Assembly (NCBI GenBank): GCA_051532055.1 | Contig: JAOPTX010000032.1 | Location: 125,115-189,114 of the forward strand | Source of the DNA: Fibrobacterales bacterium | Lineage (GTDB): Bacteria > Fibrobacterota > Fibrobacteria > Fibrobacterales > JAOPTW01 | DNA: 64,000 nt | Direction of reading: 5' to 3' | Shown: one piece after another, positions 5,206 to 23,013 of the stretch | How positions within the stretch are numbered: position 1 is the first letter of the stretch | How the letters are laid out: each line of letters starts with the position of its first letter | Translations under genes and position numbers: made by a program | Notes under the pieces: model-generated | Database searches by the model: none | What the model saw: only the letters and a program-made list of their open reading frames with translations | Told to the model about the DNA's origin: nothing

Positions 5206-5375
5206 TGTGACTCTCAACTCTTCTCTTATTTATGCATGACCTATGCTGAATATTTTAGTCTATCGGGGAATATAAGTACGTTTTAAGTCCTTAATTTTTG
5301 TAGATTTAACCACTGTGCGGCCCATTGTATTGTGTGCCGGTTTTTAATGTATTAACTGTGATTACCCGGATACTG

Positions 5376-8300
5376 ATGCAGCTTAAACAGTTCAGCGTTA
5401 TTGGCTTCAAATCTACATTATTATGGCTCATAATTGGGTGCTTTTTCATAGGCACAGTAATGGGCTCTACCAGCCAGATTGAATACCTCAAAACTCCGGA
5501 GCGCGTCAAGCCACTCCAAAATATCCTCCCTAAAAAAGGCATTTTAACCCACCCACAATGGGGATACCTTAAATTCCCGGCAAAAAACCTCTCTGTTGAT
5601 CATAAGGTAAACTTTGAAAAACGAGAAATGATAATCACAGCCTCGTTCAATAATAGCCGCAACAAACAAAAAACGGCCCTTTGGAACAGCTACTATCGAG
5701 AACTTGCGACCTACACTCTTGAGATGAATGACCTCATTTTAAACAAAATTTGGCTTGAATCTCTGATTGGTCAAGAAAACCCCAGCTCTGTAGGTCAAGG
5801 CGATACTCACTTTGAACTTGAAATCCCCATTAAAATGCCTCAGTGGCTTAAAGATGTGGGGATACCTAAACCTACAATCGACATTACCGGTGATCTAAAC
5901 ATTCAACTCAAAGGCGTGGGAAAGAAATATACAAGGGACCCCCTTCACAACTCCTTGTGGCCCAATTTTGACCCCAAATTTACACCAAACTTCTCAGTCA
6001 AAGGCTCCATTGGCAAAAACCTTTCTATCCAAATCAATAACCAAGAAGGGTTTCAAATTGCCGATCAATTAAAAATTGTGTATCAAGAATCTGAGCCCAA
6101 TGAATTTGAAGACAACATCATTCAACGCATTGAAGCAGGAAACACCTCCCTCTCTCTCGAAGGAACACGATTAACAGGATACTCTGAAAACCATCAAGGC
6201 CTCTTCGGCATAAAAGGTGAATTTAAGTTTGGTGACCTATATCTCACTGCAATAGCCTCCCAAGAAGGGGGCTCCTCTCATAAACAGTCCCTCAACTCTG
6301 AGTATACCGACAGTGAATTTGCAATTAAAGAGAGTGAATTTGTCGATGGAAAACACTTCTTCTTATCTATGGAAGATCGCAATGAATACAAGACCAAAAA
6401 GGCCCTCGGTGATCAATTAATCCTCAAGACCAAACGGAACCTTACCATTTATGTCTCTGTGCCACGAGAAAACAAAAATGATGGGAGAAACTATTACAAA
6501 GGCCTCACAGGGTACTTTGCTCATAACTTTGCAAACACAAACAATAAATACATCATGAAAGAGCTCAAAAGCGACGAGTTCAACTATGACGCAAAGACCG
6601 GCATACTCTCACTAACACGCCCCTATAGAAGTAGCCGAGTAGGCGCTTGGTGGGAGGATTTGTCTGTGGGCGATAAAATACTCACTCAACCTACAGGCGG
6701 CAATGAAGGTGGCGACAATACCGGTGTTATTATTTTCAAATCAACAACCCTTATACCTGACCTTGATCTCCTCATGCTCCGCAACCGATACGCCGTTGGA
6801 TATACGAGTGAAAGTAAAAATGATTTTCAACTCGAGTTGATAAACAGCAACCAGCAATCGCCAACTAATTTAGTGGCACTCCTTCAGGACACCCTGGGAG
6901 TCACCCTTCCCAAAGATAACGAAAAAGACTTCAACGAACTGACTGGTGAGCTAATCCTCCCCTGTAAAGTAATTCCTCAAACAGTACGGAACAATGCAGA
7001 CTCAGTTTCCTATTACCAAGAAGCGTGTCTTGAACCTATGCGCCATATTATTCCTCAGAGTTCTGCCGACAAACTCTATACCAACAGTGCAACCCTCCGG
7101 AAAAAGTTTGAATCACACTACTCGTTTAAAGTAAAGGGAAAGCGCAAAAATACTCAGATCAATCTCAACAGTGGTACTCACTCCCTCAATTCAGGGGGAT
7201 GTATGGATATTGCAGAAGGATCTGAGCGCCTTACCATTAAAGGGGCCGGAACGGTACTCCAACGCGGCAAAGATTATGATGTACTCTATGAGCTTGGACA
7301 GATAAACCTCACCTCTGATCGCGCTCGTGACCCCAACACCGAAATTGAAGTAGAGTACGAGTGCCAACCTCTCTTTCAAATTGAAAACAAGTTCTTACTC
7401 GGTCTCCGCGCCAAATACCCCCTCGAATCATTTGGCAATGGATCACTTCTTGGTGCTACGATGCTCTACAAAGGGCAATCTCTTAAAGCGCGTCGCCCAC
7501 AATATGATCAAACCCCGTATTCTTCATTTCTCTGGGGGTCAAACCTCTTACTCAAAGATAGCTCACGCTTCATGTCAAAAGCGATCAACATCCTCCCCTT
7601 TATCAAAACGAAATCACCTTCACGCTGGACGCTCGAAATGGAAATCGCCCAGTCCTACCACAACCCAAACACCTCAGGTGACGCACTCGTAGAAGATTTT
7701 GAAGGATCCTCCCGCACAATACCATACAGCATGTATCGCTCATCATGGCATAGAGCCTCTCCCCCACTCAGCACTGACCCCCTAAATCCCCTTGATTATC
7801 GCTATCAAGCACGGGAGTTTATCTGGCACTCGAATCACGAAAAACGAAGAGGCGAAATTTTTTCATCACTAAAAGAGAAGTACGACCGCAATACACGTAT
7901 ACCCATTTTAGAACTCAAAATCAAACCTATTAACCGAGAAGGAAAAAACTGGGGCTCTATAATGAGGGCTAATTCAGACTATGCAAGTGACCTCAGTGTT
8001 GAGTATGAATATATAGAAATCGTTGCAAATGGTACGGGGGGACAACTCCTCATTGACCTCGGGCAAATATCAGAAGATCTCTCAATAAACGGCGATGAAC
8101 CGAACCAAGAGCTCAACTCAGAACAGACAGAAGGAAACATTAGCCCTGATCATGACGACGGACTTGATGGCCTTCCTGATGAATTAGAGAAACGCAAAGA
8201 GTGGCTCTGCTATAGTACTTGTAACACTCCGAACATCATAACATACGACCCTATAACGAATCCAGACCCAGCCCTCGACAACTGGAGTGAGCAAGAGTAT

Positions 8301-11300
8301 GTCTCAGACCCAACTTATCAAATCAACGGCACACAAAACAATGCTGAACGTACTGTCTATGACACAGAAGACATTAGTAGAGACGGACTCCTTCAGACAA
8401 CGAATGCCTTTGTCCGATATACCATTGATTTTTCTGACGACATGATCAATGCTAATAATGGTGTTCAAGTAATTGAGCAGCAGGGCACCGGACAAAACAG
8501 CTGGAAAATTTACCGCATAAATCTCAAAAAGTATAGTGACGTCTATCCTCTTGGAGCGAACCTTACTCAGATTCTACAAAATGCAAAATTCACTCGATTA
8601 ACCCTAACAGGAGCCTCAAGCGAAACAGAGGTGAGACTTGCTCGCTTTAATATCGTTGGGAGCCAGTGGGAAACTGAATTTTTGACCGATGTCGCTACTG
8701 GTGACACGATCAAAACCTTACAAGAGAACTTTACCTCCGATGGCCCAACCTCAACAACGTCTTTCGCCAGTACAACTGAAGAGACTGGTGGCCGTGTTTC
8801 GGTAGATGTTATCGATAACAAAGATGATAATGACATCTACTTCCCCTCCAATAATACTGTTTTTGAAATCGAAGATGATGACACCGGCACGAAAAGAAGA
8901 GAACAGGCACTCATCATCAACTACTCTGAAATTGAACCGGGCCAGCAAGCATTCATTACCCGTAAATTTGAATCGCAACAGTTTGACCTAACCAATTATA
9001 AAAGCCTTAAAATGGAGATCCACCATGTCGATTCAACTCTCGGTGCATTTAATGACCCAGGAGTGCGCTTTGCCATACAACTTGGATCAGATCCAACGAA
9101 CAAAGGTTCGTATTATGAATGGTCGTTTAGACCCACACCTCAAAGTTGTGGTTCCGATGAAGCATGCCATAGCGGCAACTGGGATGACAATGCCTTTGCC
9201 TTAGCACTGAGCGAGTGGCCCAAACTCAAGAACCACTCCGATTGGTCTCCTGTGGTTGACACCTCCATTCGATATATTTTACAAAATGGAACCTATCAAC
9301 CTGCCGACCTTAATTATAAACGACAACTCAAAACCCTCCATGATGCCATTGAAGATTCAGAAGGCACCACTGAACGAGCTGAGATGATCACCCTTCGTGG
9401 AAATCCATCAATAAGCAACATAAGTTGGATGCGTATTGTAATCATCGTGGATGACGAAGAGCTTTCGGATGATCCTCGTACCGTATCAGGTGAATTTTGG
9501 GTTAATGATCTCAGGCTCGATGGTATTCGTGATGGCTGGGGAACATCTGCACGTTCACGAATTCAACTTGAGTTTGGTGATGTTCTCACTCTCAGTACCG
9601 ATGTCACTTATCAAAATGGTAACTTTGCACCTCTGCAGTCTAACTCTGGTTCTGCCAAAAAATCTCCCGCACAATCATCATCCTTGATGCAATACAATGC
9701 AAGCGCCCAGTTTCATCTTAATAAGTTTTTAAAAGACGAGTGGAAATTTAGAATCCCCTTTATGGTTTCAACGAGTATGAATGTCACGCGCCCCTTTACT
9801 AAACCCAACTCAGATATTCTTCTCTCAGATGATGACTTTTTTGATTTATCCAAAGACTTCTATGATCACCTCACTGACCAAGAGAACATCTTTAGTGAAG
9901 ATCAACAAGACACCAATTATATCGGTACTAACCACGGTGAAGAACAAACCTTAAGATCAGAAAGTAAAAGTGAAGGCTTTCAGACTGTACAGCTCAGAAA
10001 ACAACTCAGCGTGAGTTTTGCTAAAGAATATGTCCGGCATAAGTCCCTCCCTGTAGAAATGCTCTCTCAAGTATTACTCGAGCGACCAACACTCTCTTAC
10101 AAGTATGTGGAGTCCGAAAACTTCTCACCAACGTCAATTGATACCAATTATACTTATACCACCTCTGCCAAGTATAAATTTGGTCAATTAAAAGCGAGTA
10201 AATTCCGACCCTTTTCGAGCTTCAAGAGTTCTAAAAATTCTTGGATTAAGTCACTCTCTAAAACATCCTTTTCACCCTGGCCCGAAACATTTGATGTTAC
10301 GCTTGCTGATTTTTCATTTAACAAACGCCTCACCAACAACCGTTCTGTTGATTCTCCTAATTTTACTCATAGAGAGACCGATTACGGACTTGACCTCAAG
10401 CACTCAATCAATATGCGATGGAAAATGTTTAACTTTCTCACCGCTTCTTACGACCTTACTATAAACCGTGACTTTAATGATTTTCATGCTGACTTTGCCA
10501 AAGAGGCGCTTTTTGATAGTGAAAAGGGCGGGGGACTTTTAGGACTTGGACGTATTACAAGTCTCGACACTAACGATCATGCCCGTCGCTATCTCCTCAG
10601 AGATAGTTCAGGAGTCTATGAAGACATCACTTACCAAGATGAACGCATCTCACAATACATAAATTATGACTCAGTCCTTGTTGACCCTGCAGCAATCGAT
10701 GGGTCTGACTATGGCATCTTGCTTAATGAGTTTAAACGATCACAAAATATGAAACTCAATTATAGTCCTCAATTTGTCGATTTTGTCACCACTCGTTTTA
10801 TCCTTGAGTCCCGATTTAATCATGACCGAAACAATACCAACTTTAGTGATGACACTACCGACACGTATTGGACACTCAAACAAACAAATAGTTTTCAAAC
10901 ATCCGCAACTCTCAAACTCCCCCAACTCTTTGACTTTAGTGCTACCAAAGGCATCTCAAAATTTTTAAAAAAAATGAAGTGGTCTAGCCTACGCAGCACC
11001 TGGAAGGTAAATCTCAACACTTCTGGAGAAGAGTATACTTTTGCAGACTTAGAACGCCAAGGCGTCTCAGCAAGTGACTACTATAAGTACTCTTTTGGCC
11101 TCGCTGAAGGTGGTGGTTGGCGCCATCCCGGCAATATCGTCACGGGAACTATGGGCAAAAATAACTGTGAAGACTATACCCATTTTGCTGAATACTGTAA
11201 TCAAGAAATTTTTTACCTTCAAAACCCTTCCGATTCTAATGGATTCAGAAATAAAAATCAACTCATCAACAAACACCTTCTACCCACACCACGTGTGGGC

Positions 11301-12284
11301 AACAATCAGTTTACCCAAGACATAGATCGTGCGCTTAAACTCAATACCCAACTTACTATACCAACATCAATGCCCATTCAATTACAAGCACGAACTGAGT
11401 GGAGTCAAAAAATTGGCTTTGAAAGAGAGAACCCTTGGCAAACAGACACAACAACCACTTGGCCATCATACTATGTCTATGGTACGCTCAAAAACATTGC
11501 TCAAACCTTTGCCCCTCTCAAAAAACGGTTTTCTTCTATTAATCTCTCATCCGGATATAAATATAGCCAGGTAGAATCTATTACAGCCCATGCAAACTCT
11601 GAAGATGGCGTGGAAGAAAAATACTCTTTTGCCCCCCTCATTAAAGCAACCTTAACAACAAAAAAGAAGACAACTTTTTCAAATGCAATAAACCTGAGTT
11701 GGGGCCAAAAGGATAGTTATAACAAAGTTCAAGCCATTGCCAATAACACAGCAGTTGTTGACACAACCACCTTCTGGAATGAACGCTATATCCCGTATGT
11801 TCCCAATGAAAAATTTAGAACAACAAACTTTTCTTTTAGTAATGACTTTAGAGTAAAATATGAGATTCCTACCAACAAAGGATTTTATCTATTCAAATGG
11901 TTTTTTAGACTCAAAAACCCCGTTATTCTCAATGGGGTTATTACCTACGCTTGGAAAAGAGAGACTCGTACAACCTTTGACAATAACAACTACCTCCCTT
12001 CTGATTCCACCATTGGCACTCCAAGTATTTTAGTGAATAACCTACAAGATATTGCTAGCCCTTACTACTATCCTGCCCGTTACAATGATGGTCAGGTGGA
12101 CAATCGCACCCGTAACTGGTCATTTCTTATCCACCCGAGCATGAGTTATCAATTCACCACACGGGTTGCCAGTTTAGCCCATATTAAATACCGTTATGAA
12201 GATATTGTGACCAATGACACCGATCAACGCAAACAAGATTTAGAATTTTTAATACAGGTTACTATTAAGTTTGGAAACAGATAA
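5376..12284 (+). CDS. sprA: SprA/Sov-like very large outer-membrane protein (type IX secretion translocon homolog)
   Basis: About 2300 aa. N-terminal motifs FEDNIIQRIEAGNTSLSL...GLFGIKGEFKFGDL; also LQRGKDYDVLYELGQI, DTEDISRDG and FWVNDLRL. The C-terminus is rich in amphipathic beta strands. Start codon uncertain (5325 or 5376). Confidence 0.85.
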   Translation: MQLKQFSVIGFKSTLLWLIIGCFFIGTVMGSTSQIEYLKTPERVKPLQNILPKKGILTHPQWGYLKFPAKNLSVDHKVNFEKREMIITASFNNSRNKQKTALWNSYYRELATYTLEMNDLILNKIWLESLIGQENPSSVGQGDTHFELEIPIKMPQWLKDVGIPKPTIDITGDLNIQLKGVGKKYTRDPLHNSLWPNFDPKFTPNFSVKGSIGKNLSIQINNQEGFQIADQLKIVYQESEPNEFEDNIIQRIEAGNTSLSLEGTRLTGYSENHQGLFGIKGEFKFGDLYLTAIASQEGGSSHKQSLNSEYTDSEFAIKESEFVDGKHFFLSMEDRNEYKTKKALGDQLILKTKRNLTIYVSVPRENKNDGRNYYKGLTGYFAHNFANTNNKYIMKELKSDEFNYDAKTGILSLTRPYRSSRVGAWWEDLSVGDKILTQPTGGNEGGDNTGVIIFKSTTLIPDLDLLMLRNRYAVGYTSESKNDFQLELINSNQQSPTNLVALLQDTLGVTLPKDNEKDFNELTGELILPCKVIPQTVRNNADSVSYYQEACLEPMRHIIPQSSADKLYTNSATLRKKFESHYSFKVKGKRKNTQINLNSGTHSLNSGGCMDIAEGSERLTIKGAGTVLQRGKDYDVLYELGQINLTSDRARDPNTEIEVEYECQPLFQIENKFLLGLRAKYPLESFGNGSLLGATMLYKGQSLKARRPQYDQTPYSSFLWGSNLLLKDSSRFMSKAINILPFIKTKSPSRWTLEMEIAQSYHNPNTSGDALVEDFEGSSRTIPYSMYRSSWHRASPPLSTDPLNPLDYRYQAREFIWHSNHEKRRGEIFSSLKEKYDRNTRIPILELKIKPINREGKNWGSIMRANSDYASDLSVEYEYIEIVANGTGGQLLIDLGQISEDLSINGDEPNQELNSEQTEGNISPDHDDGLDGLPDELEKRKEWLCYSTCNTPNIITYDPITNPDPALDNWSEQEYVSDPTYQINGTQNNAERTVYDTEDISRDGLLQTTNAFVRYTIDFSDDMINANNGVQVIEQQGTGQNSWKIYRINLKKYSDVYPLGANLTQILQNAKFTRLTLTGASSETEVRLARFNIVGSQWETEFLTDVATGDTIKTLQENFTSDGPTSTTSFASTTEETGGRVSVDVIDNKDDNDIYFPSNNTVFEIEDDDTGTKRREQALIINYSEIEPGQQAFITRKFESQQFDLTNYKSLKMEIHHVDSTLGAFNDPGVRFAIQLGSDPTNKGSYYEWSFRPTPQSCGSDEACHSGNWDDNAFALALSEWPKLKNHSDWSPVVDTSIRYILQNGTYQPADLNYKRQLKTLHDAIEDSEGTTERAEMITLRGNPSISNISWMRIVIIVDDEELSDDPRTVSGEFWVNDLRLDGIRDGWGTSARSRIQLEFGDVLTLSTDVTYQNGNFAPLQSNSGSAKKSPAQSSSLMQYNASAQFHLNKFLKDEWKFRIPFMVSTSMNVTRPFTKPNSDILLSDDDFFDLSKDFYDHLTDQENIFSEDQQDTNYIGTNHGEEQTLRSESKSEGFQTVQLRKQLSVSFAKEYVRHKSLPVEMLSQVLLERPTLSYKYVESENFSPTSIDTNYTYTTSAKYKFGQLKASKFRPFSSFKSSKNSWIKSLSKTSFSPWPETFDVTLADFSFNKRLTNNRSVDSPNFTHRETDYGLDLKHSINMRWKMFNFLTASYDLTINRDFNDFHADFAKEALFDSEKGGGLLGLGRITSLDTNDHARRYLLRDSSGVYEDITYQDERISQYINYDSVLVDPAAIDGSDYGILLNEFKRSQNMKLNYSPQFVDFVTTRFILESRFNHDRNNTNFSDDTTDTYWTLKQTNSFQTSATLKLPQLFDFSATKGISKFLKKMKWSSLRSTWKVNLNTSGEEYTFADLERQGVSASDYYKYSFGLAEGGGWRHPGNIVTGTMGKNNCEDYTHFAEYCNQEIFYLQNPSDSNGFRNKNQLINKHLLPTPRVGNNQFTQDIDRALKLNTQLTIPTSMPIQLQARTEWSQKIGFERENPWQTDTTTTWPSYYVYGTLKNIAQTFAPLKKRFSSINLSSGYKYSQVESITAHANSEDGVEEKYSFAPLIKATLTTKKKTTFSNAINLSWGQKDSYNKVQAIANNTAVVDTTTFWNERYIPYVPNEKFRTTNFSFSNDFRVKYEIPTNKGFYLFKWFFRLKNPVILNGVITYAWKRETRTTFDNNNYLPSDSTIGTPSILVNNLQDIASPYYYPARYNDGQVDNRTRNWSFLIHPSMSYQFTTRVASLAHIKYRYEDIVTNDTDQRKQDLEFLIQVTIKFGNR

Positions 12285-15865: not shown

Positions 15866-16435
15866 TTATTCTATATCACGTGAAACCAGATACCCCTTAT
15901 GCACATCTTGAACCAAAAAGCAAAGTTTTTGTATTCCTTTTGTCATACTTTTTGCCGATATAGTAGAACCGCTGAGAGCGTCAATATCGGTGCCATATTT
16001 AAATGAAGCACGAGCATTTTTACCCTTAAACAAATCAAGCCATTCCTGCTGTTTAACTGCACGACCTCGAATCTCTCTATATTTTAAAACAGTGTTATAC
16101 ACCACTTTTTGCTCTGCATCAAAAACAACTAAAAAAGTAATGGGCATTTGTTTACCAAACACATTATCCACAAAAGCATGGCCAATCAGCGAGTCACCTT
16201 TATGAATTGACCAATAGTAGAGAAAATTAAAGTAGTAGTTCTGATTAACTTTTATTACTGCAGCTCTACGCATTTCTTTAGTAACAAGTACTTTTTCATA
16301 GTGAAGAAGCGTCTCAATACCATACAAAGAACGAAGCTCCCGCTCCGCACTCTGCTTAAGGTCTTGAGCCCCTGCAATCACAGGGGCCAAAAGAACTATT
16401 ATCGCTAATATTATATATATGCGATAGGCCTTCAT
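15866..16435 (-). CDS. Exported FMN-binding domain protein
   Basis: Signal peptide, GKQMPITFLV, YREIRG and flavinylation-type motif DALSGST. Start overlaps the porin stop codon. Confidence 0.8.
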   Translation of the reverse strand: MKAYRIYIILAIIVLLAPVIAGAQDLKQSAERELRSLYGIETLLHYEKVLVTKEMRRAAVIKVNQNYYFNFLYYWSIHKGDSLIGHAFVDNVFGKQMPITFLVVFDAEQKVVYNTVLKYREIRGRAVKQQEWLDLFKGKNARASFKYGTDIDALSGSTISAKSMTKGIQKLCFLVQDVHKGYLVSRDIE

Positions 16436-17520
16436 TAGAACATGTACCCTACACCAAGATCAATAAAGTGAGTCACGTCATCATTCGCACCTTTAGTTTG
16501 ATAGGTGTAATCAGCTTTAAAAACCACTTCATCAACAGGTTTGAACGCAAGTCCCGCTGCAATTTTTGTAGTTGCATTTGCCTCTTCTACAGCACTGTCC
16601 GTATGTGATGATGCAACATTGAATGCTTCATATCGTACCCAAGGAAGTAACTTAGCTTCTTCGAAACCAAGTTCACTACCAACATTATATCCTACTTCAG
16701 TATAAAAACCCGAAGACCCTTCAAGGCCTTGGTTAGCAAGTGCTTCATAGGTTGTAAGGGCCGCTTCAGTTACTGCATAGATATTATTTGCGTCGTATTT
16801 TGCGTGAACTTCTAAAAGGTTAATTCCCTCGAAATTTTGTTCTCCATTATTTGCCATAAGGTGATTACGTGAAATTGATGCACCAACACGAAGACCCATT
16901 AAACCGATATAGTCGACTCGTGCATTAAACAGTACTGTTTCAAGACTTGATTTATACCCTTTTTGACGACCACTACGAATGCCACTATCTTCTATATTTG
17001 CCGTATTAAGACCCTCCATCACAACAACTTTATAGTCGATCATATCAGAGATTACACCAGTTGCACCCACACCATTTCCAAACCATGTTGTTGGAATAAT
17101 ACGTTTACTATATTCCGGACGCTCTACTGATACAAAGAGTGGTGGCTCGTGGTTTTCATTAATAAGACCAATTGAAGGGAGAAGCACACCAAATTGATAG
17201 TTTGCCGCATCCGAGTGTTTAAAGTTGATAATAGCTTGTTCAAGCTCGAGCTCACCATTTCCACCTGAAACAAAATTATGTTCAAGTTCAACTTCAGATT
17301 TAAATGACCACTGCTCATTCCACTGATACCCATAAAAGAGAACAAACCGATGAAAGTCCAAAGTAGGTGCTTTATCATCTTTCTTCTCGACATTTTTATA
17401 ATTCAAGTGGAGCTCACCATATCCACCAATTGACGTTTTTGATCCACCACTTACAGCGAATTCATCTTGCCCAAAGGCAACTGCAGCCATAAAGGCAACC
17501 ATATATACCATTTTTTTCAT
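16435..17520 (-). CDS. Outer-membrane porin-like beta-barrel
   Basis: Signal peptide from ATG 17520. IGGYGELH, DFHRFVLF, ELEH, NENHEP and IIPTTW motifs; C-terminal GVGYMF. Confidence 0.8.
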   Translation of the reverse strand: MKKMVYMVAFMAAVAFGQDEFAVSGGSKTSIGGYGELHLNYKNVEKKDDKAPTLDFHRFVLFYGYQWNEQWSFKSEVELEHNFVSGGNGELELEQAIINFKHSDAANYQFGVLLPSIGLINENHEPPLFVSVERPEYSKRIIPTTWFGNGVGATGVISDMIDYKVVVMEGLNTANIEDSGIRSGRQKGYKSSLETVLFNARVDYIGLMGLRVGASISRNHLMANNGEQNFEGINLLEVHAKYDANNIYAVTEAALTTYEALANQGLEGSSGFYTEVGYNVGSELGFEEAKLLPWVRYEAFNVASSHTDSAVEEANATTKIAAGLAFKPVDEVVFKADYTYQTKGANDDVTHFIDLGVGYMF

Positions 17521-17531
17521 TTTCACATCCC

Positions 17532-17570
17532 GTTTAACTAGATTAAGATTCAGTCTCAATCTAGTTAAAC
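17532..17570. promoter_or_regulatory. Perfect 13-bp inverted repeat enclosing a Fur-box-like 19-mer, immediately upstream of the porin start
   Basis: GTTTAACTAGATT-13nt-AATCTAGTTAAAC. The minus-strand core reads ATTGAGACTGAATCTTAAT. Confidence 0.55.
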
Positions 17571-17575
17571 TAATA

Positions 17576-17604
17576 GCGCCCCTCAAGGACTAATTGGGGG
17601 GCGC
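17576..17604 (-). terminator. GC-rich hairpin after the EamA gene, possible intrinsic terminator
   Basis: GCGCCCCTCAA...TTGGGGGGCGC. The U-tail on the minus strand is weak. Confidence 0.45.
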
Positions 17605-17670
17605 CATCAAATTCACAACTATGTAATGTAATCAACTTATGGTTTGTTACAGCCTTATGCCAGTCCAACC

Positions 17671-18597
17671 TTATAAAAAAGGGAAATATGAGTGCTTTTC
17701 GCCTAATATGATCAATAATACCCCAGTAAACAACGCAATAAGCGCGCTCATTTTTTTTCTTTTATTAAGCTCCTTAAATAGAAAAGCTCCAAGAATAAGA
17801 GTGACAAACACACGACTTCTCTTAACTGCAGAAAGTAACAGTATGAGGGCATCTTCATGAGCAAGTGCTCGAAAATAGACAAAATCTGCAGCAATAAGAA
17901 GTATGCCAATAAGGGGGATTGACCACCGCCACTGGAAAGGCGTACTTTTTTTCCTGATGGGAACCCATGCACAGAGTGTGATTAAACCCAGTAATGTAAC
18001 GAGATAAAAGGAAAACCACAACTGTAGTGTTTGCGGGGGTATGGCGCGAGTTTGAATAAGATATTTATCGTAAAGGCCACTACTCGACCCTGCTATAGTT
18101 CCCAAAACGACAAAGAGAATCCAACGATTACGCCTAAAGTCAATGCCCTCTTTCTTGCCCAATGAAGAAAAACCCATCAATGAGCCTAATATCAGTGCAA
18201 CCCCAAACCATTGCAGTGGAGTAGGAGATTCACCGTAAATAAAAAGCGCTCCGAAAAGGGTAATAAATGGACCAGCTGCTCTAATTGGGGTTACCAAAGA
18301 TAGTGGAAGGTGCTTGAGTGCAAAAAAATTGAGTGTCCACGCAAGAGAGATAATTGCAGACTTAAGAGCAATAAGCCCATGGAGCTGCCACTCAATGGGC
18401 GATACATAGAGCCCAAACTGTTGAAATAAATCTGAGAATAAATATGAGCCCACAAATAGTGGAGCCATAGAAAGTAGTCCAAAACAAGTGCTCAAAAAGA
18501 GAACGGGAATAACTGCATTATCACGCACTCCATATTTTTTAGCTATGTCATAGAGGCCCAAAAAAAGGGCAGAAAGTAATCCAAGGTAGATCCACAT
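17671..18597 (-). CDS. EamA/DMT family transporter
   Basis: About 10 hydrophobic segments in two repeats; ALKHLPLSLVTPIRA. Confidence 0.85.
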   Translation of the reverse strand: MWIYLGLLSALFLGLYDIAKKYGVRDNAVIPVLFLSTCFGLLSMAPLFVGSYLFSDLFQQFGLYVSPIEWQLHGLIALKSAIISLAWTLNFFALKHLPLSLVTPIRAAGPFITLFGALFIYGESPTPLQWFGVALILGSLMGFSSLGKKEGIDFRRNRWILFVVLGTIAGSSSGLYDKYLIQTRAIPPQTLQLWFSFYLVTLLGLITLCAWVPIRKKSTPFQWRWSIPLIGILLIAADFVYFRALAHEDALILLLSAVKRSRVFVTLILGAFLFKELNKRKKMSALIALFTGVLLIILGEKHSYFPFL

Positions 18598-18635
18598 GAA
18601 GGCATTAATAGATGTTTAAAAAACAGATCGGTCTA

Positions 18636-19241
18636 TTACTCAGTTAGTTTTATATGGTGTATAAAGGTATCAACTTTAGTGACACCATCCAACTCACCAG
18701 TCTTAAGATATTCAACTAATTTAAAACGCATACTCTCTTCTGCTTCTACAGTAGATGCTCCTTCAGCTCGAATATTAAGGTCAGGGCAGTACTGATAACA
18801 TCTATTTTGTGAAATCCACGAAAGGGTCATCACCTCTACATTTTCAAGTTCAACTTCAACAAAATGAGGTTTCTTAATATGACGTGCTACTCGCTCTCTC
18901 AGCTCTGCCGAACTAATAAGCTTTGAAATAGACTCATTAGCACCCACTTTCATTGCTCGATAGGCTAGATTATTATTCAAATTGGAGCTTTGAAACAGTA
19001 TCGGAGTATCAATATAAGGCTCTATTGCTCGTACATGCCTGATAAAGTCTATTCCAGTTCCATCAAACAAACTATAATCGACAATAAAACAATTCACTGG
19101 AGGCTTATGGGCAATAAGCTCTAGCGCCTCATCAAGAGAGGCGGCAAAAGTTATATCAACAGAGTCACCCAAAATTTTTTTCAAAATCTTTTGAGCAATT
19201 TTACTGTCTTCAAGATGAAATATTTTTACGCCGTTAGCCAT
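18636..19241 (-). CDS. Response regulator: receiver domain plus C-terminal HicB-like domain
   Basis: Receiver motifs LEDS, IVDYSL.DGTG and GAN..ISK. C-terminal YCPDLNIRAEGASTVEAEESMRFKLVEYL. Confidence 0.75.
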   Translation of the reverse strand: MANGVKIFHLEDSKIAQKILKKILGDSVDITFAASLDEALELIAHKPPVNCFIVDYSLFDGTGIDFIRHVRAIEPYIDTPILFQSSNLNNNLAYRAMKVGANESISKLISSAELRERVARHIKKPHFVEVELENVEVMTLSWISQNRCYQYCPDLNIRAEGASTVEAEESMRFKLVEYLKTGELDGVTKVDTFIHHIKLTE

Positions 19242-19330
19242 ATCAGACCCCAAATGTCATACGTTGTTAGTATACCACATTTTAAAAATTTGACGAGACT
19301 TTTTTAGAAGTTCAAGCACTTACTTTCGGA

Positions 19331-21682
19331 TTATATTCCGAGTTTTAGGCCCGCATAGATCCCAAACCATCGATAGTGATCATGAGTACCCACTCGAGAG
19401 TTCAAGTAGAGATCTCCCACTGGAGATATCAAAGGATCAACATCCCTTTCAGTTATAAGCAGATTTAATGAAACCCCAGTAAACAAACTTATATAGGGCC
19501 CAAACTTAATACCCATCCCACTTTTTAATCGAAAGAGGTTATTAAAGTCGCTCCAACTCATCGCTTCTTCTTCCTCTTCTGGAGGATTAAATATTGCATT
19601 CCACCCAAAATCAGTTTCACTATAAAACCCTCCAAAATCATGACGATACCCATAACCCATTCCAATAAGAACGACATTCTTATTGGATGTTATTTTTTCC
19701 GCAGCAGTAAAAGTGGTATACAGCTTTTTGCCTCCGGTGGCAAGTGTAATCAATTCTAACCCGGTCTCATCGACCCAAATATTACCATTAAGTCGTCCAT
19801 TTTTTGAATAATTGATTAACCCAATAGGATAATCACAAGAGTCTGAAATATTGATAAGTCCAATTTGTACACCTCCAACATCACCTGCTACGTTAAGGAT
19901 TGATGTAACCTGATGATCAGATACATCATCTGCAATGTTTATAGCACCTGCAACCTGAGTTCCCACAACCTTATCTGAAGCATTCATAAAACCAGCAGCC
20001 TGAAAACCTTCAACGGCATCTGAGACATTCATAAAACCCGCTGCTTGAAAACCTTCAACGGCATTTGAGACATTCATAAAACCTGCTGCTTGAAAGCCTT
20101 GGATAGGCTCCGAAACATTTATAAAACCTGCAGCCTGAAAACCGCTTATAGAGTCAGAGATATTAATAAATCCACTTCCCTGAAAACCTACAACAGTATC
20201 TGCAGCATTGATAAAGCCAGACATCTGAAAGCCCTCTAGATTCTCAGCAATGTTCACATAACCTGCAGCCTGAAAACCTGTTACTTTTCTTGCAAGATTA
20301 ACGACACCAGCTCCTTGAAAAAACTCAATATCATCTGCAATGTTAAAAACACCCCCTACCTGGATACCACCAATGTACCCCTTGTTAATATTACCTATAG
20401 CAGCGATTGATGACTCAGAAATACCACCATACGTCTCTGTAACACCAAAGTTTAGTAAAGTACCATTAAAGGGCTCATCATATCTTTTATGAAAATAGAC
20501 CGTTTTAGTTGCTCGCTGCTCTAAAAATTGAGGTATTGTATCTCGAGTATCCCGTATCATAATAGTGTCATGAGTAACAACGGTGTCAACATCTGTGAGA
20601 TTTGCTACTGCCCCTTCATTAGTAAGTGATACCGCACCACCTCGACTCACCGTTTGTTCTTGTTCGACTGTAGTAAAATCTCTACCATTCACAACAATTC
20701 GTTTTCTGTATGGAATCACCACACTACTTTTTTTAAAGCGGTTATGTGCCTCAAGGCTTATACTATATTCACCAGGCTCGAGCCCCAGTTCAATACTTCT
20801 CCCACCTTGTTTACTCAACTCAGCTATAAGATACCCTTCACTATTGCGAACAAAAAGTCTGCCCGCTATATTTTCACCAAGTAAAAGCCCCGATGAAATT
20901 TCACGTACATCAGTAAAAACAACATCGCCGGTACCCGTGAGCTTCATATCATAATTAGCATGCTGTGCTCCACCACTTGTCTTCTCTGTGTTTGACAATG
21001 TCTCATTAAAGGCAAATTGGTACGCTTCACTCAACGTTACTTTTTTGTCTCCACTGATATCAGCCGCCCCTCTGAGCCCCGTTACGAGATAATGAGTAAA
21101 AAAAGAGCCACTAATCCTATCAGACTCCTGAGAAACTTCATCTCCGGCACTCGATGTGATAAAAGCATATCCTTTCATATCCGATGACTCATCAACTAAA
21201 AATGCCTTTCGACGAAGGCCTCCTTTAAAACGAGTAATGGTCCCCGAAGCACATGCGTCAAGCACCGCGATTTTGATATCTGAGCGCATCTCATTGATTT
21301 TAGATCGAAGCTCTTTATACCCGAGAAGCTCTTCACCGAGTAATAGCCCTTTGTCATTAGCATGTCCAGAATAGTAGAGTATCAATTCACTTTTTTGTCC
21401 TACACTTTTCACCTTGTCGATCTGACGATTTAATGAATCAAGTATGGTCAATAATTCAATACGTGTCGGTTCTTTTATAAGCTGTTGATCACTCTGTAAC
21501 ACACCACCCATCTGTTTCATAACACTTAAAAACGAAACAGCATCAGTTGTTGCATACCGCAAAGGAACTCGCCCTTCACCACCAAAATTTGACCCAATCG
21601 CAAGGGCAAAACGGCGAATCTCTTTTGATTCACCGATTGTTGCAAGTACTAGAAATACTAAAAAACAGAGTACTTTATTCAT
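19331..21682 (-). CDS. Exported caspase-family (peptidase C14) protein with 15-aa GxQ repeats and a C-terminal beta-barrel-like region
   Basis: Signal peptide; LRYATTDA; catalytic YYSGHA and LDACASG; SQESD...GSFFTHYL. GGAGG RBS before ATG 21682. Confidence 0.88.
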   Translation of the reverse strand: MNKVLCFLVFLVLATIGESKEIRRFALAIGSNFGGEGRVPLRYATTDAVSFLSVMKQMGGVLQSDQQLIKEPTRIELLTILDSLNRQIDKVKSVGQKSELILYYSGHANDKGLLLGEELLGYKELRSKINEMRSDIKIAVLDACASGTITRFKGGLRRKAFLVDESSDMKGYAFITSSAGDEVSQESDRISGSFFTHYLVTGLRGAADISGDKKVTLSEAYQFAFNETLSNTEKTSGGAQHANYDMKLTGTGDVVFTDVREISSGLLLGENIAGRLFVRNSEGYLIAELSKQGGRSIELGLEPGEYSISLEAHNRFKKSSVVIPYRKRIVVNGRDFTTVEQEQTVSRGGAVSLTNEGAVANLTDVDTVVTHDTIMIRDTRDTIPQFLEQRATKTVYFHKRYDEPFNGTLLNFGVTETYGGISESSIAAIGNINKGYIGGIQVGGVFNIADDIEFFQGAGVVNLARKVTGFQAAGYVNIAENLEGFQMSGFINAADTVVGFQGSGFINISDSISGFQAAGFINVSEPIQGFQAAGFMNVSNAVEGFQAAGFMNVSDAVEGFQAAGFMNASDKVVGTQVAGAINIADDVSDHQVTSILNVAGDVGGVQIGLINISDSCDYPIGLINYSKNGRLNGNIWVDETGLELITLATGGKKLYTTFTAAEKITSNKNVVLIGMGYGYRHDFGGFYSETDFGWNAIFNPPEEEEEAMSWSDFNNLFRLKSGMGIKFGPYISLFTGVSLNLLITERDVDPLISPVGDLYLNSRVGTHDHYRWFGIYAGLKLGI
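19850..20375 (-). repeat. Intragenic 45-bp (15-aa) tandem repeats, consensus VEGFQAAGFxNVSDx, about 11-12 copies
   Basis: Near-identical 45-bp units are visible at 19981-20115; copies degenerate toward both ends. Confidence 0.85.
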
Positions 21683-22487
21683 TACCTCCACCTTTCATAA
21701 TTGTTGTCGTATATTGAAAAAATCGCTTATCAAGACTCAAAAAGCCATTCTCTGGCGGTGGTGCACCATCTTTTTTTAACGCATCCTTTATTATCTTAAC
21801 GTTAAAGGCCTCTTTGGCCGTTATAAAATAGAATCGTTCATACCGTGGCGCATCATCAAGTTCATAAGAAAAAGAGAGCGGAGTTTTAGTATTCAATATT
21901 AGTGACGCCGCATCCTCCCCCTCAATTGGTAAGTGTATTGTCACAACGCCGTTTCCATCAACGGAGGCAATCACCCCATACTTTCGATCGGTTGAGATAT
22001 AATGTATTTGAATAAGGTCACCTTGAGTAGCGCTCCCTCCATCTTCTATATAAACTGTTGCATCACTATGTTTTTTATAGAGTTCTAAATAAGGACCTAG
22101 TCCTTTGGTGCGAAGACCATCATTACCGGCATTAAAGTATACCACAACAACTGAAACTAAAATCACCATAGAAAGGACAGAAAATAGCTTTGTTATCCCC
22201 CCCCCCGATGATACCGCCACTTCAGCCTCTTGGCTTTCTTCCGCAGAAGAACCATCCGACAGGGTAACCGATTCAATTCCTGCTTTTTGTTTCACCTGGC
22301 GCAATACCCAATCTGGAGAATACTCCTCTGCAATAGAGACATCAGACTCTAACACCGCAGCTAAACGTTCACTCAAGGCGCTGTCATACTCAAGACGATC
22401 AGTGATTGCCCGTAATTCTACTTCTGGGAGTTCTCCCAACACATACCGTTCAAGCTTCCAATGTGGCACTATCTCTTCTCTCTTCAT
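21675..22487 (-). CDS. Membrane-anchored anti-sigma-like protein (ActD-like) with a C-terminal DUF4384-like domain
   Basis: N-terminal LERYVLGEL helix, single TM (LFSVLSMVILVSVVVVYF), RTKG, then GDLIQI.Y...YGVIASVDGNGVVT.H and LDDAPRYERF. Overlaps both neighbours. Confidence 0.75.
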   Translation of the reverse strand: MKREEIVPHWKLERYVLGELPEVELRAITDRLEYDSALSERLAAVLESDVSIAEEYSPDWVLRQVKQKAGIESVTLSDGSSAEESQEAEVAVSSGGGITKLFSVLSMVILVSVVVVYFNAGNDGLRTKGLGPYLELYKKHSDATVYIEDGGSATQGDLIQIHYISTDRKYGVIASVDGNGVVTIHLPIEGEDAASLILNTKTPLSFSYELDDAPRYERFYFITAKEAFNVKIIKDALKKDGAPPPENGFLSLDKRFFQYTTTIMKGGGNE

Positions 22488-22975
22488 ACAAGTACCTCCC
22501 GTAGCTCATTCACGCTCTCTTTCAGAAGTCGCAGTCGCTTGCGCACCCCTGAGACAGACATTTTAACCTCACCCGCAACCTCTTCGAGGGTCATACCATC
22601 AACATAGTGCAGTACTGCAATAGTTCTCGTTGACTCAGGCCCTCTTTGAAATATTTTATCAAGGAGCGAACGTTGTTCCAAAATTTTCTCATCATCAACA
22701 CAGGCTATCATCTCAACAATTTCATCGCCAATAGCTTCGGGTCGTTTTTTATTATCACGAATTCTATTCAAGCAAAGATTGGTCGCAATACGATAGAGTA
22801 GACTTGAAGGGAATTCAATAGATAGGTTTTCCCGTTTACGAATTACTTGTACAAATACATTCTGCATAATATCCATCGCCTCGTGCTCATCTTTGAGCAA
22901 TTGTTGACACCGGCGCAACACCATTGCCCCATATCGCTTATACAGCGCCTCTATATCAACTTTTTGCTCACTCAT
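22484..22975 (-). CDS. ECF RNA polymerase sigma-70 factor
   Basis: Region 2 (EAMDIMQNVF, LYRIATNLCLNRIR) and region 4 (DGMTLEEVA...SVSGVRKRL); 163 aa. Confidence 0.92.
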   Translation of the reverse strand: MSEQKVDIEALYKRYGAMVLRRCQQLLKDEHEAMDIMQNVFVQVIRKRENLSIEFPSSLLYRIATNLCLNRIRDNKKRPEAIGDEIVEMIACVDDEKILEQRSLLDKIFQRGPESTRTIAVLHYVDGMTLEEVAGEVKMSVSGVRKRLRLLKESVNELREVLV

Positions 22976-22986
22976 TCTATCCTTTA

Positions 22987-23013
22987 GACACGGCTATTCT
23001 GCAGAAGTGTTAC
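22987..23013 (-). promoter_or_regulatory. Candidate autoregulatory ECF promoter GTAAC-N16-CGT
   Basis: Minus strand reads GTAAC acttctgcagaatagc CGTGTC taaaggataga ATG, matching the common ECF AAC/CGT architecture. Confidence 0.5.

Follow-up and report, generated by a model that had tools for sequence, protein, structure and literature searches.

What could a caspase do in an operon that it shares with a sigma factor and an anti-sigma factor, and with an N-terminus that suggests export? The question is raised by three overlapping genes in a window of 64,000 nucleotides from a Fibrobacterales bacterium (assembly GCA_051532055.1, contig JAOPTX010000032.1, positions 125,115 to 189,114); among named genomes, one from the Fibrobacterales holds the closest relative of the locus. 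All three open reading frames lie on the minus strand, in the order extracytoplasmic function (ECF) sigma factor, anti-sigma-like protein and caspase-barrel protein, hereafter the triad. A sequence-only reading had proposed that a receptor-protease anchored in the outer membrane senses a ligand with its repeats and cuts the anti-sigma in the periplasm. We find that the triad is real and widespread, with a mechanism undescribed in the literature searched. It probably acts as a trans-envelope proteolytic switch: cell-surface signalling in a variant form, with the site-1 protease built into the outer-membrane receptor and able to release itself. We infer the cutting steps of this switch from gene order, conservation, fold, motif and covariation, all obtained by computation. 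The genes are as follows.

22484-22975, minus strand: ECF sigma gene, 163 residues, with Pfam Sigma70_r2 and r4 and TIGR02937
21675-22487, minus strand: anti-sigma-like ("ActD-like") gene, 270 residues
19331-21682, minus strand: exported caspase-barrel gene, 783 residues from the ATG at 21682

The positions of the open reading frames bear out the overlaps proposed earlier. The first product is an ECF sigma as claimed, being short, consisting of the sigma2 and sigma4 domains only, and scoring 70.7 bits against the TIGR02937 sigma70-ECF model (cut-off 42.9). The caspase frame is open from a GTG at 21691 (786 residues), the ATG at 21682 being the likelier start. It matches Peptidase_C14 (E 4e-10) and contains the SGHA and DAC motifs, the 15-residue repeats and the C-terminal FGIYAGLKLGI that had been pointed out.

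The genome carries seven paralogues of the caspase, and each of the seven lies behind a sigma gene followed by an anti-sigma gene, a recurrence that exceeds chance. Wider loci were taken as best hits or picked by hand for spread, comprising 110 of 164 matches in the bacterium's own phylum, 78 loci from the 476 matches of a GTDB scan and, for the myxobacterial phylum, about 100 of 257. They yielded 297 distinct caspase frames, 284 of which have at least 1.4 kb of upstream sequence; anti-sigma and sigma precede 264 of these, an anti-sigma alone precedes eight, and twelve have neither. The co-occurrence of the three genes, on which the sequence-only reading depended, thus extends across phyla. 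In the reverse direction, 38 anti-sigma matches from ten genomes were inspected: the full-length ones precede a caspase, the two exceptions being a match at a contig edge and a partial one, and those matching by the anti-sigma N-terminus alone have no caspase. Of 151 sampled Fibrobacterota genomes, 108 encode the caspase and 112 the anti-sigma, and broken down by family the two counts almost coincide. In the phylum to which a Myxococcus isolate belongs, 78 of 121 genomes have the caspase, single genomes reaching 17 matches, and it also occurs in records of Latescibacterota, Gemmatimonadetes and Acidobacteria; Fibrobacter intestinalis and the Myxococcus isolate both carry the family.

Further analysis of the two envelope proteins revealed three short stretches in which Lys or Arg is followed by a small residue.

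22101-22112, minus strand: site A, R126-T-K128-G129 of the anti-sigma, predicted site-1 cut about 10 residues outside the transmembrane helix
21221-21232, minus strand: site B, R151-F-K153-G154 of the caspase, nine residues past the catalytic Cys, predicted self-processing or self-inhibiting loop
20639-20650, minus strand: site C, V-S-R347-G348 of the caspase, at the start of a disordered linker, predicted self-release site

The motif thus sits in three structurally unrelated places. When re-registration by two residues is allowed, it is present in 272 of 274 triads at site A (K/R-G/S/A), in all 274 at site B (K/R-G/A) and in 268 at site C. Across the family, site A lies 6-39 residues beyond the membrane helix, with a median of 13. 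Among the seven paralogous anti-sigmas, which are 15-32% identical to the present one, only Met1 and Lys128 are invariant, and K128 and G129 are the two most conserved columns in 61 divergent triads (59 and 60, respectively). In close caspase homologues, the R-x-K-G of site B is found in 120 of 120, and the Arg and Gly of site C in 120 and 119 of 120. Two unrelated triads (L067 and L279) have R-G at all three sites. By comparison, a five-member clade of orphan anti-sigma-like proteins, encoded beside gyrase/topoisomerase and hemB genes with neither sigma nor caspase, has no Lys at site A in any of its five members, all from this one clade. The sites of MALT1 often have Gly at P1'. MALT1 cleaves after Arg and also cleaves itself (PMC6023146).

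The residues upstream of the putative cuts vary together. At positions P4-P2 of sites A and B, cognate partners resemble each other more closely than permuted ones do, with z values of 8.3, 6.8 and 5.1 at 111, 63 and 27 representatives and none of 2000 permutations reaching the observed value, and positions P2'-P3' of the same sites gave a null result. Among 54,609 pairs of three-residue windows, RTK of the anti-sigma and RFK of the caspase rank first (z 8.5). Shuffling paralogues within the same genome (44 genomes, 114 triads) left a z of 4.3 for A-B, which none of 3000 shuffles reached, 3.2 for A-C and 3.4 for B-C; the flanking controls were null. This is good but indirect evidence that a single caspase pocket may read the motifs of both A and B, and the covariation fits cutting and binding alike.

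Structure prediction, together with the hydrophobicity of the N-terminus, divides the caspase-barrel protein into five parts.

21626-21682, minus strand: Sec-type signal-peptide-like N-terminus, recognised by hydrophobicity
20903-21625, minus strand: caspase-fold domain, with His107 at 21362-21364 and Cys144 at 21251-21253
20663-20890, minus strand: β-sandwich after the caspase, in a MALT1-like caspase-Ig arrangement
19802-20530, minus strand: β-helix of 15-residue repeats (LA_2272-like), periplasmic in the model and optional in the family
19334-19798, minus strand: eight-stranded outer-membrane barrel of OmpA/OprF type, from predicted structure

The signal peptide claimed earlier is supported to the extent that the N-terminus is hydrophobic, here and in 110 of 111 family representatives. 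A first model of the N-terminal part was mediocre, with a predicted local distance difference test score (pLDDT) of 68. In the full-length model, the caspase domain (residues 20-260, of lower confidence past the Cys) is followed by the sandwich (265-340), a disordered linker (341-382, pLDDT below 50), the β-helix (385-627, pLDDT above 90) and the barrel (629-783). Structural comparison using VIA-align showed that the barrel resembles OprF (PDB 4rlc; Z 14.8, root-mean-square deviation 4.2, 130 aligned residues), the β-helix those of EtpA and Ag43 (Z 16), and the caspase metacaspase 4 (Z 15.5) and MALT1 (Z 14.5), with caspases also among its fold matches. Foldseek ranked the MALT1 caspase-Ig unit first for the N-terminal part and returned no match at E up to 0.001 for the full-length model. 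In the model, the barrel has eight antiparallel strands, with long loops at strands 3-4, 5-6 and 7-8 opposite both termini and short turns on the termini side. Long loops on one side, with termini and short turns on the other, are the OmpA pattern. Since the β-helix enters strand 1 directly, both helix and caspase should be periplasmic, and the model thus agrees with the earlier suggestions that the C-terminus is a β-helix plus barrel and that the caspase is anchored in the outer membrane and faces the periplasm.

A role of the repeats as ligand sensor is not supported. They lie on the periplasmic side in the model and are missing in 76 of 101 complete triads, whose tails of typically 160-230 residues are the size of the barrel alone; four or more repeats occur in the other 25, and LA_2272_repeat was detected in 37 of 42 homologues. 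An autotransporter of type Va was considered and rejected: the translocator barrel of that type has 12 strands, the modelled barrel has eight, and only the β-helix resembles autotransporter passengers. The pocket of the caspase is acidic (D47, D142, E182 and E186; D47 conserved in 265 of 266 and D142 in 266 of 266), which predicts Lys or Arg at P1. C14 enzymes other than animal caspases cleave after Arg or Lys by means of an acidic pocket (PMC5756287). In addition, a DxSxD loop in the sequence may bind Ca2+.

The anti-sigma-like protein has an N-terminal class-I anti-sigma domain, a single transmembrane helix at about residues 98-118 and a DUF4384-like domain predicted to be periplasmic. With its gene at +1 from the sigma, it has the layout of a class I anti-sigma, and its family profile matches RslA-type 3hug, ChrR and the N-terminus of DdvA; database names for it are ActD and ActD-like. 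The single hydrophobic helix described previously is confirmed, and the DUF4384 assignment is less secure, as Pfam DUF4384 (PF14326) has no match in this protein and matches 23 of 57 family members at E up to 0.05. An HxxxCxxC zinc motif is missing from this copy; it is carried by 55 of 111 family representatives, and zf-HC2 was detected in 16 of 57 members. From these relationships we infer that the protein binds the ECF sigma at the inner membrane. Orphan anti-sigma-like genes of the kind found beside gyrase/topoisomerase and hemB genes, with no sigma, no caspase and no Lys at site A, were noted at L282:3477-4206 and L283, and also at L200, L204, L221, L229 and L233. Apparent anti-sigma-caspase fusions at L025, L054, L080, L086 and L158 were discarded as early-start artefacts of GC-rich DNA.

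The sigma gene is preceded by a candidate promoter.

22986-23013, minus strand: predicted autoregulated ECF promoter, -35 GTAACA (23013-23008), 16-nucleotide spacer, -10 GTGTCT (22991-22986)

The pattern GT(A/G)ACA-N16-GTGT(T/C) occurs upstream of 78 of 87 related sigma genes, compared to a mean of 0.8 and a maximum of 4 in shuffled sequences, and GTRACA-N16-GTGTY is predicted from this to be the promoter used by the cognate sigma. As part of the motif is a palindrome, it might instead be an operator bound by a dimeric regulator. A generic AAC-N15-18-CGT pattern showed no enrichment (9 of 94, shuffle mean 10.3), and a sigma-70 promoter scan stayed at chance (8 versus 12.7). GTAAC-type -35 boxes occur in other ECF groups, and the part of the ECF supplement covered mentions DUF4384 for ECF25 only and does not contain the word "caspase" (PMC7826278). 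ECF25 and ECF216 are candidate groups for the sigma (Casas-Pastor 2021); ECF25 would fit in taxa and in its DUF4384 anti-sigma, but the GGAAC/GTC promoter described for ECF25s1-2 is unlike the present one. As a separate observation, the C-terminus of three of the seven sigma paralogues (L003:7224-7823, L005:2863-3405 and L006:2909-3505) is extended by a hydrophobic stretch that may be a membrane helix.

A matrix scan of this genome returned four sites, including that of the triad's own operon. Another precedes a stand-alone gene (L007:700-1671; G000:C7:142199-143170, minus strand) that encodes a signal peptide, repeats and an eight-stranded barrel without caspase, possibly a decoy or co-receptor within the regulon; a search for longer relatives of this protein gave one match. 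A third leads a three-gene run about 5 kb from the second triad (L374:2888-4878; G000:C32:39384-41377, minus strand), which by inspection appears to encode two barrels, the first of them small, with a metallophosphoesterase lipoprotein between them. The fourth precedes a gene of NAD(P)-binding type. The plain pattern has six matches in this genome versus 0-4 with other spacers, so that one or two sites may be chance. Five Fibrobacter genomes gave 20 matches versus 4 in controls, upstream of genes for the sigma, a TonB-dependent receptor, a DUF4249 protein, a DUF3450-ExbB-type operon and flavodoxin-fold reductases; in another five genomes the counts were 8 versus 2, the targets being the sigma, ExbB-ExbD-TonB-receptor operons, a receptor gene and others. 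As the predicted targets are uptake machinery and further outer-membrane proteins, the output resembles that of cell-surface signalling.

The scaffold itself recurs in a second setting. A profile of helix plus barrel matched 10,402 representatives, and the best 150 comprise 64 caspase fusions, 50 long non-caspase proteins and 36 short ones. Forty helix-barrel proteins picked by length include 14 with an STN domain (5 over the cut-off) and 30 with CarboxypepD_reg. A first metagenome scan for STN-type loci found none, and a further scan gave 29. Sixteen of these match strongly and extend far enough upstream to be judged: the gene lies behind FecR in 15 of them, and in 14 an ECF sigma comes before FecR. 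STN is a periplasmic domain that contacts FecR-type anti-sigmas, and its position behind FecR and an ECF sigma therefore fits a periplasmic output domain on an outer-membrane transducer. Caspase or STN on the same helix-barrel, each beside its own type of anti-sigma, points to one scaffold with either a protease or a binding output. Loci L381-L401 are operons of ECF sigma, FecR and STN-CarboxypepD-β-helix-barrel genes, with no plug domain by Pfam in the related proteins scanned.

Taken together, these results lead us to propose the following sequence of events. At rest, the anti-sigma would keep the ECF sigma at the inner membrane, as family homology suggests, and the caspase would hang in the periplasm from the eight-stranded barrel of the predicted structure, here via the β-helix stalk. 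Its own R-x-K-G loop, placed at or close to the active site, would keep it inactive. Candidate triggers are a signal at the outer loops of the barrel, clustering, or Ca2+. The triggered Lys/Arg-specific caspase would cut its own loop at site B and then the link to its anchor at site C. Once freed, it would reach the inner membrane and cut between K128 and G129, to which the covariation points, removing the DUF4384-like cap. RseP and cytoplasmic proteases would then finish the anti-sigma, by analogy with other systems of regulated intramembrane proteolysis, and an RseP-type M50 peptidase is encoded in this genome (E 3.8e-64), making a site-2 protease available. From GTRACA-N16-GTGTY promoters, the liberated sigma would transcribe genes for the envelope and for uptake as well as its own operon.

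Several observations weigh against this proposal. An unrelated window pair, the next in rank, reaches a z of 7.4, so clade structure must contribute much to the covariation; tree-based tests on independent pairs lean towards the covariation, but the pairs are few and none of the tests is significant (median p 0.25-1), and a column-based A-C test was null (z 0.6, rank 20,306). Conservation as strong as that of K128 is seen at about 15 further ectodomain positions in 111 close homologues of the anti-sigma. The two all-Arg enzymes have no pocket substitution in common, Arg at site A goes with Lys at the other two sites in L311 and L336, Arg is confined to B in L176, the sister of L067, and L307 lacks the motif at A. 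The specificity-pocket Cys of metacaspases (GCxND) is replaced: YAxxD aligns to GCIND, with Ala for Cys, and losing this Cys lowers the activity of AtMC9 and TbMC2 (PMC5756287). Regarding gene order, the twelve of 284 caspases with neither partner upstream comprise six tandem second copies, one in a promoter-led TonB operon and five others; in the myxobacteria G151 and G273, a barrel-only gene takes the place behind the cognate sigma and anti-sigma, and the caspases lie elsewhere. A complex prediction of caspase and sandwich with the anti-sigma ectodomain gave no answer (score 0.00) and counts neither way.

Four other readings share parts of this evidence. In one, which we regard as unlikely, sites A, B and C would be cut during export regardless of any signal, the fragments would stay bound, and a signal would pull the complex apart as in FoxR-type systems. 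The same motif, covariation and intact dyad would be expected; moreover, MaOC1 autoprocesses without an activator (PMC5756287), and constitutively self-cleaved anti-sigmas have been described (PMC11506125). However, a housekeeping cut would need neither an outer-membrane anchor nor a separate release site, and the caspase module swaps with the signal-relaying STN domain.

It is somewhat less likely that the caspase binds without any signalling cleavage, the R-x-K-G of the anti-sigma mimicking the inhibitory loop and docking in the active site as an enzyme-inhibitor or tether couple, with the sigma freed otherwise, as for STN-FecR. The covariation would then reflect recognition by a common pocket rather than cutting, and TonB-dependent transducers do bind and protect anti-sigmas (PMC11637429). 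Yet the His-Cys dyad is intact in 274 of 274 triads, compared to its loss in 16% of prokaryotic homologues (PMC3501461), and the P1' Gly is kept at all three sites.

An envelope-assembly sentinel, which differs from the proposed switch in its trigger only, appears improbable. Here a failed barrel insertion would leave the caspase-barrel at the inner membrane, where it would cut the anti-sigma, in keeping with very divergent barrels, optional repeats and motif-predicted targets that are mainly outer-membrane or envelope proteins. By contrast, the seven paralogous triads here, the 17 caspase matches in one myxobacterial genome and the partner-matched motifs suggest separate inputs. Finally, the caspase is very unlikely to be a mere output of the sigma (as an effector, or to process other proteins of the envelope, the K-G of the anti-sigma being structural), for although some caspases sit in promoter-led operons without an anti-sigma, such as the ExbB-ExbD-TonB-receptor-caspase operon of G151, and many ectodomain residues are equally conserved in close homologues, this reading leaves the cognate A-B covariation and the loss of Lys in caspase-free orphans unexplained.

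Among known systems, the switch that we favour stands closest to ECF cell-surface signalling, of which it would be a variant with regulated proteolysis. FecI/FecR/FecA systems likewise have genes for an ECF sigma, an anti-sigma with a single transmembrane helix and an outer-membrane protein in a row (PMC5411451, PMC11637429, PMC10392083). Further likenesses are the TonB-dependent receptors and ExbB/ExbD/TonB among the predicted targets and the helix-barrel that also occurs with STN behind FecR. They differ in the transducer (here an eight-stranded barrel with a caspase rather than a TonB-dependent one with STN), in the anti-sigma ectodomain (DUF4384-like, not FecR) and in the site-1 protease, which here would be dedicated rather than the shared Prc/CtpA; the three triad proteins have no STN, plug or FecR match.

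DdvS/DdvA of Myxococcus xanthus also combines an ECF sigma, a transmembrane anti-sigma and a periplasmic caspase-fold protease proposed to act at site 1 before RseP (PMC11506125), and the N-terminal anti-sigma domain of DdvA is related to that of the present family. In DdvA, however, the protease is a TPR-CHAT domain inside the anti-sigma, compared to a separate C14 caspase on an outer-membrane anchor here. In the type III-E system, the caspase-fold protease Csx29 cuts Csx30, an anti-sigma-like protein that binds the sigma RpoE, and one group of Csx30 C-terminal domains is DUF4384 (bioRxiv 10.1101/2022.08.17.504292); unlike the triad, this CRISPR-linked system works in the cytoplasm, uses a CHAT-family protease and is triggered by RNA. 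Cyanobacteria also have DUF4384, fused there to 23 orthocaspases (PMC8283722). The caspase shares its fold, acidic pocket, predicted Arg/Lys P1 and predicted self-cleavage with MALT1, metacaspases and MaOC1 (PMC6023146, PMC5756287), and with MALT1 also the caspase followed by a β-sandwich (top Foldseek rows). It differs from MALT1 in being exported, barrel-anchored and only 12-14% identical, and from metacaspases in lacking the pocket Cys.

Operons of sigma-70 and metacaspase genes were reported by Asplund-Samuelsson in 2012 from M. xanthus, Anaeromyxobacter, Haliangium, Sorangium, Ralstonia and Fibrobacter, with a suggested role in autolysis (PMC3501461). They are very probably the present triads, and the part of that account covered mentions no anti-sigma, barrel, cleavage motif or mechanism. 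Our literature search likewise found no account of the mechanism, though an ECF-group description naming a caspase may have been missed. In G151, a run at L267:4253-11447 encodes a GGDEF protein, a sigma-54 activator, an epimerase-GNAT protein, an anti-sigma and, as fifth gene, a caspase, with no adjacent sigma and the cognate sigma elsewhere. Going by the gene order, this run may be the act operon, actA-E. The Myxococcus act operon has five genes (PMC3824092). More tentatively, with a confidence a little short of even, we suggest that the triads form a distinct trans-envelope class, with a small barrel receptor, a self-activating and self-releasing caspase, paralogues insulated by a co-evolving P4-P1 code, a modular caspase or STN output, and control of TonB uptake in Fibrobacter and myxobacteria, the last two act-operon genes included.

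Around the triad, a response regulator gene downstream (18636-19253) follows the caspase only in the nearest relative among 17 listed loci and is not counted as part of the system. Contigs of one metatranscriptome cover most of the operon and none of 17284-18703; as contigs alone, perhaps from the source sample itself, they may stem from DNA and are no proof of expression. Elsewhere in the window, 5325-12284 (plus strand) encodes an exported protein of 2319 residues, presumably similar to SprA-type translocons, and at 15866-17586 (minus strand) the gene for an FMN-binding protein overlaps that for a porin O/P-like barrel. Lipoprotein-like genes (765-812 residues) stand directly before three triads of this genome (G000:C16:120021-122327, C16:25914-28352 and C42:53853-56150), and relatives of them precede L095 and L096. 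In Latescibacterota loci, two caspase-barrel genes flank a DUF4252 + Omp85-type gene (L099:5923-10922).

The usual guess for bacterial caspase homologues is cell death. The triad offers a named candidate substrate, a residue-level site between K128 and G129, two predicted self-cleavage sites and a reporter promoter, which together make the question of what such homologues cut directly testable, also in culturable hosts such as Fibrobacter intestinalis and the Myxococcus isolate. If the proposed switch holds true, bacterial caspases would gain a signalling job rather than a cell-death one, and a receptor-borne site-1 protease would be added to ECF signalling. A further consequence would be a link between a caspase and the control of nutrient uptake in rumen cellulose degraders, and possibly Myxococcus development.

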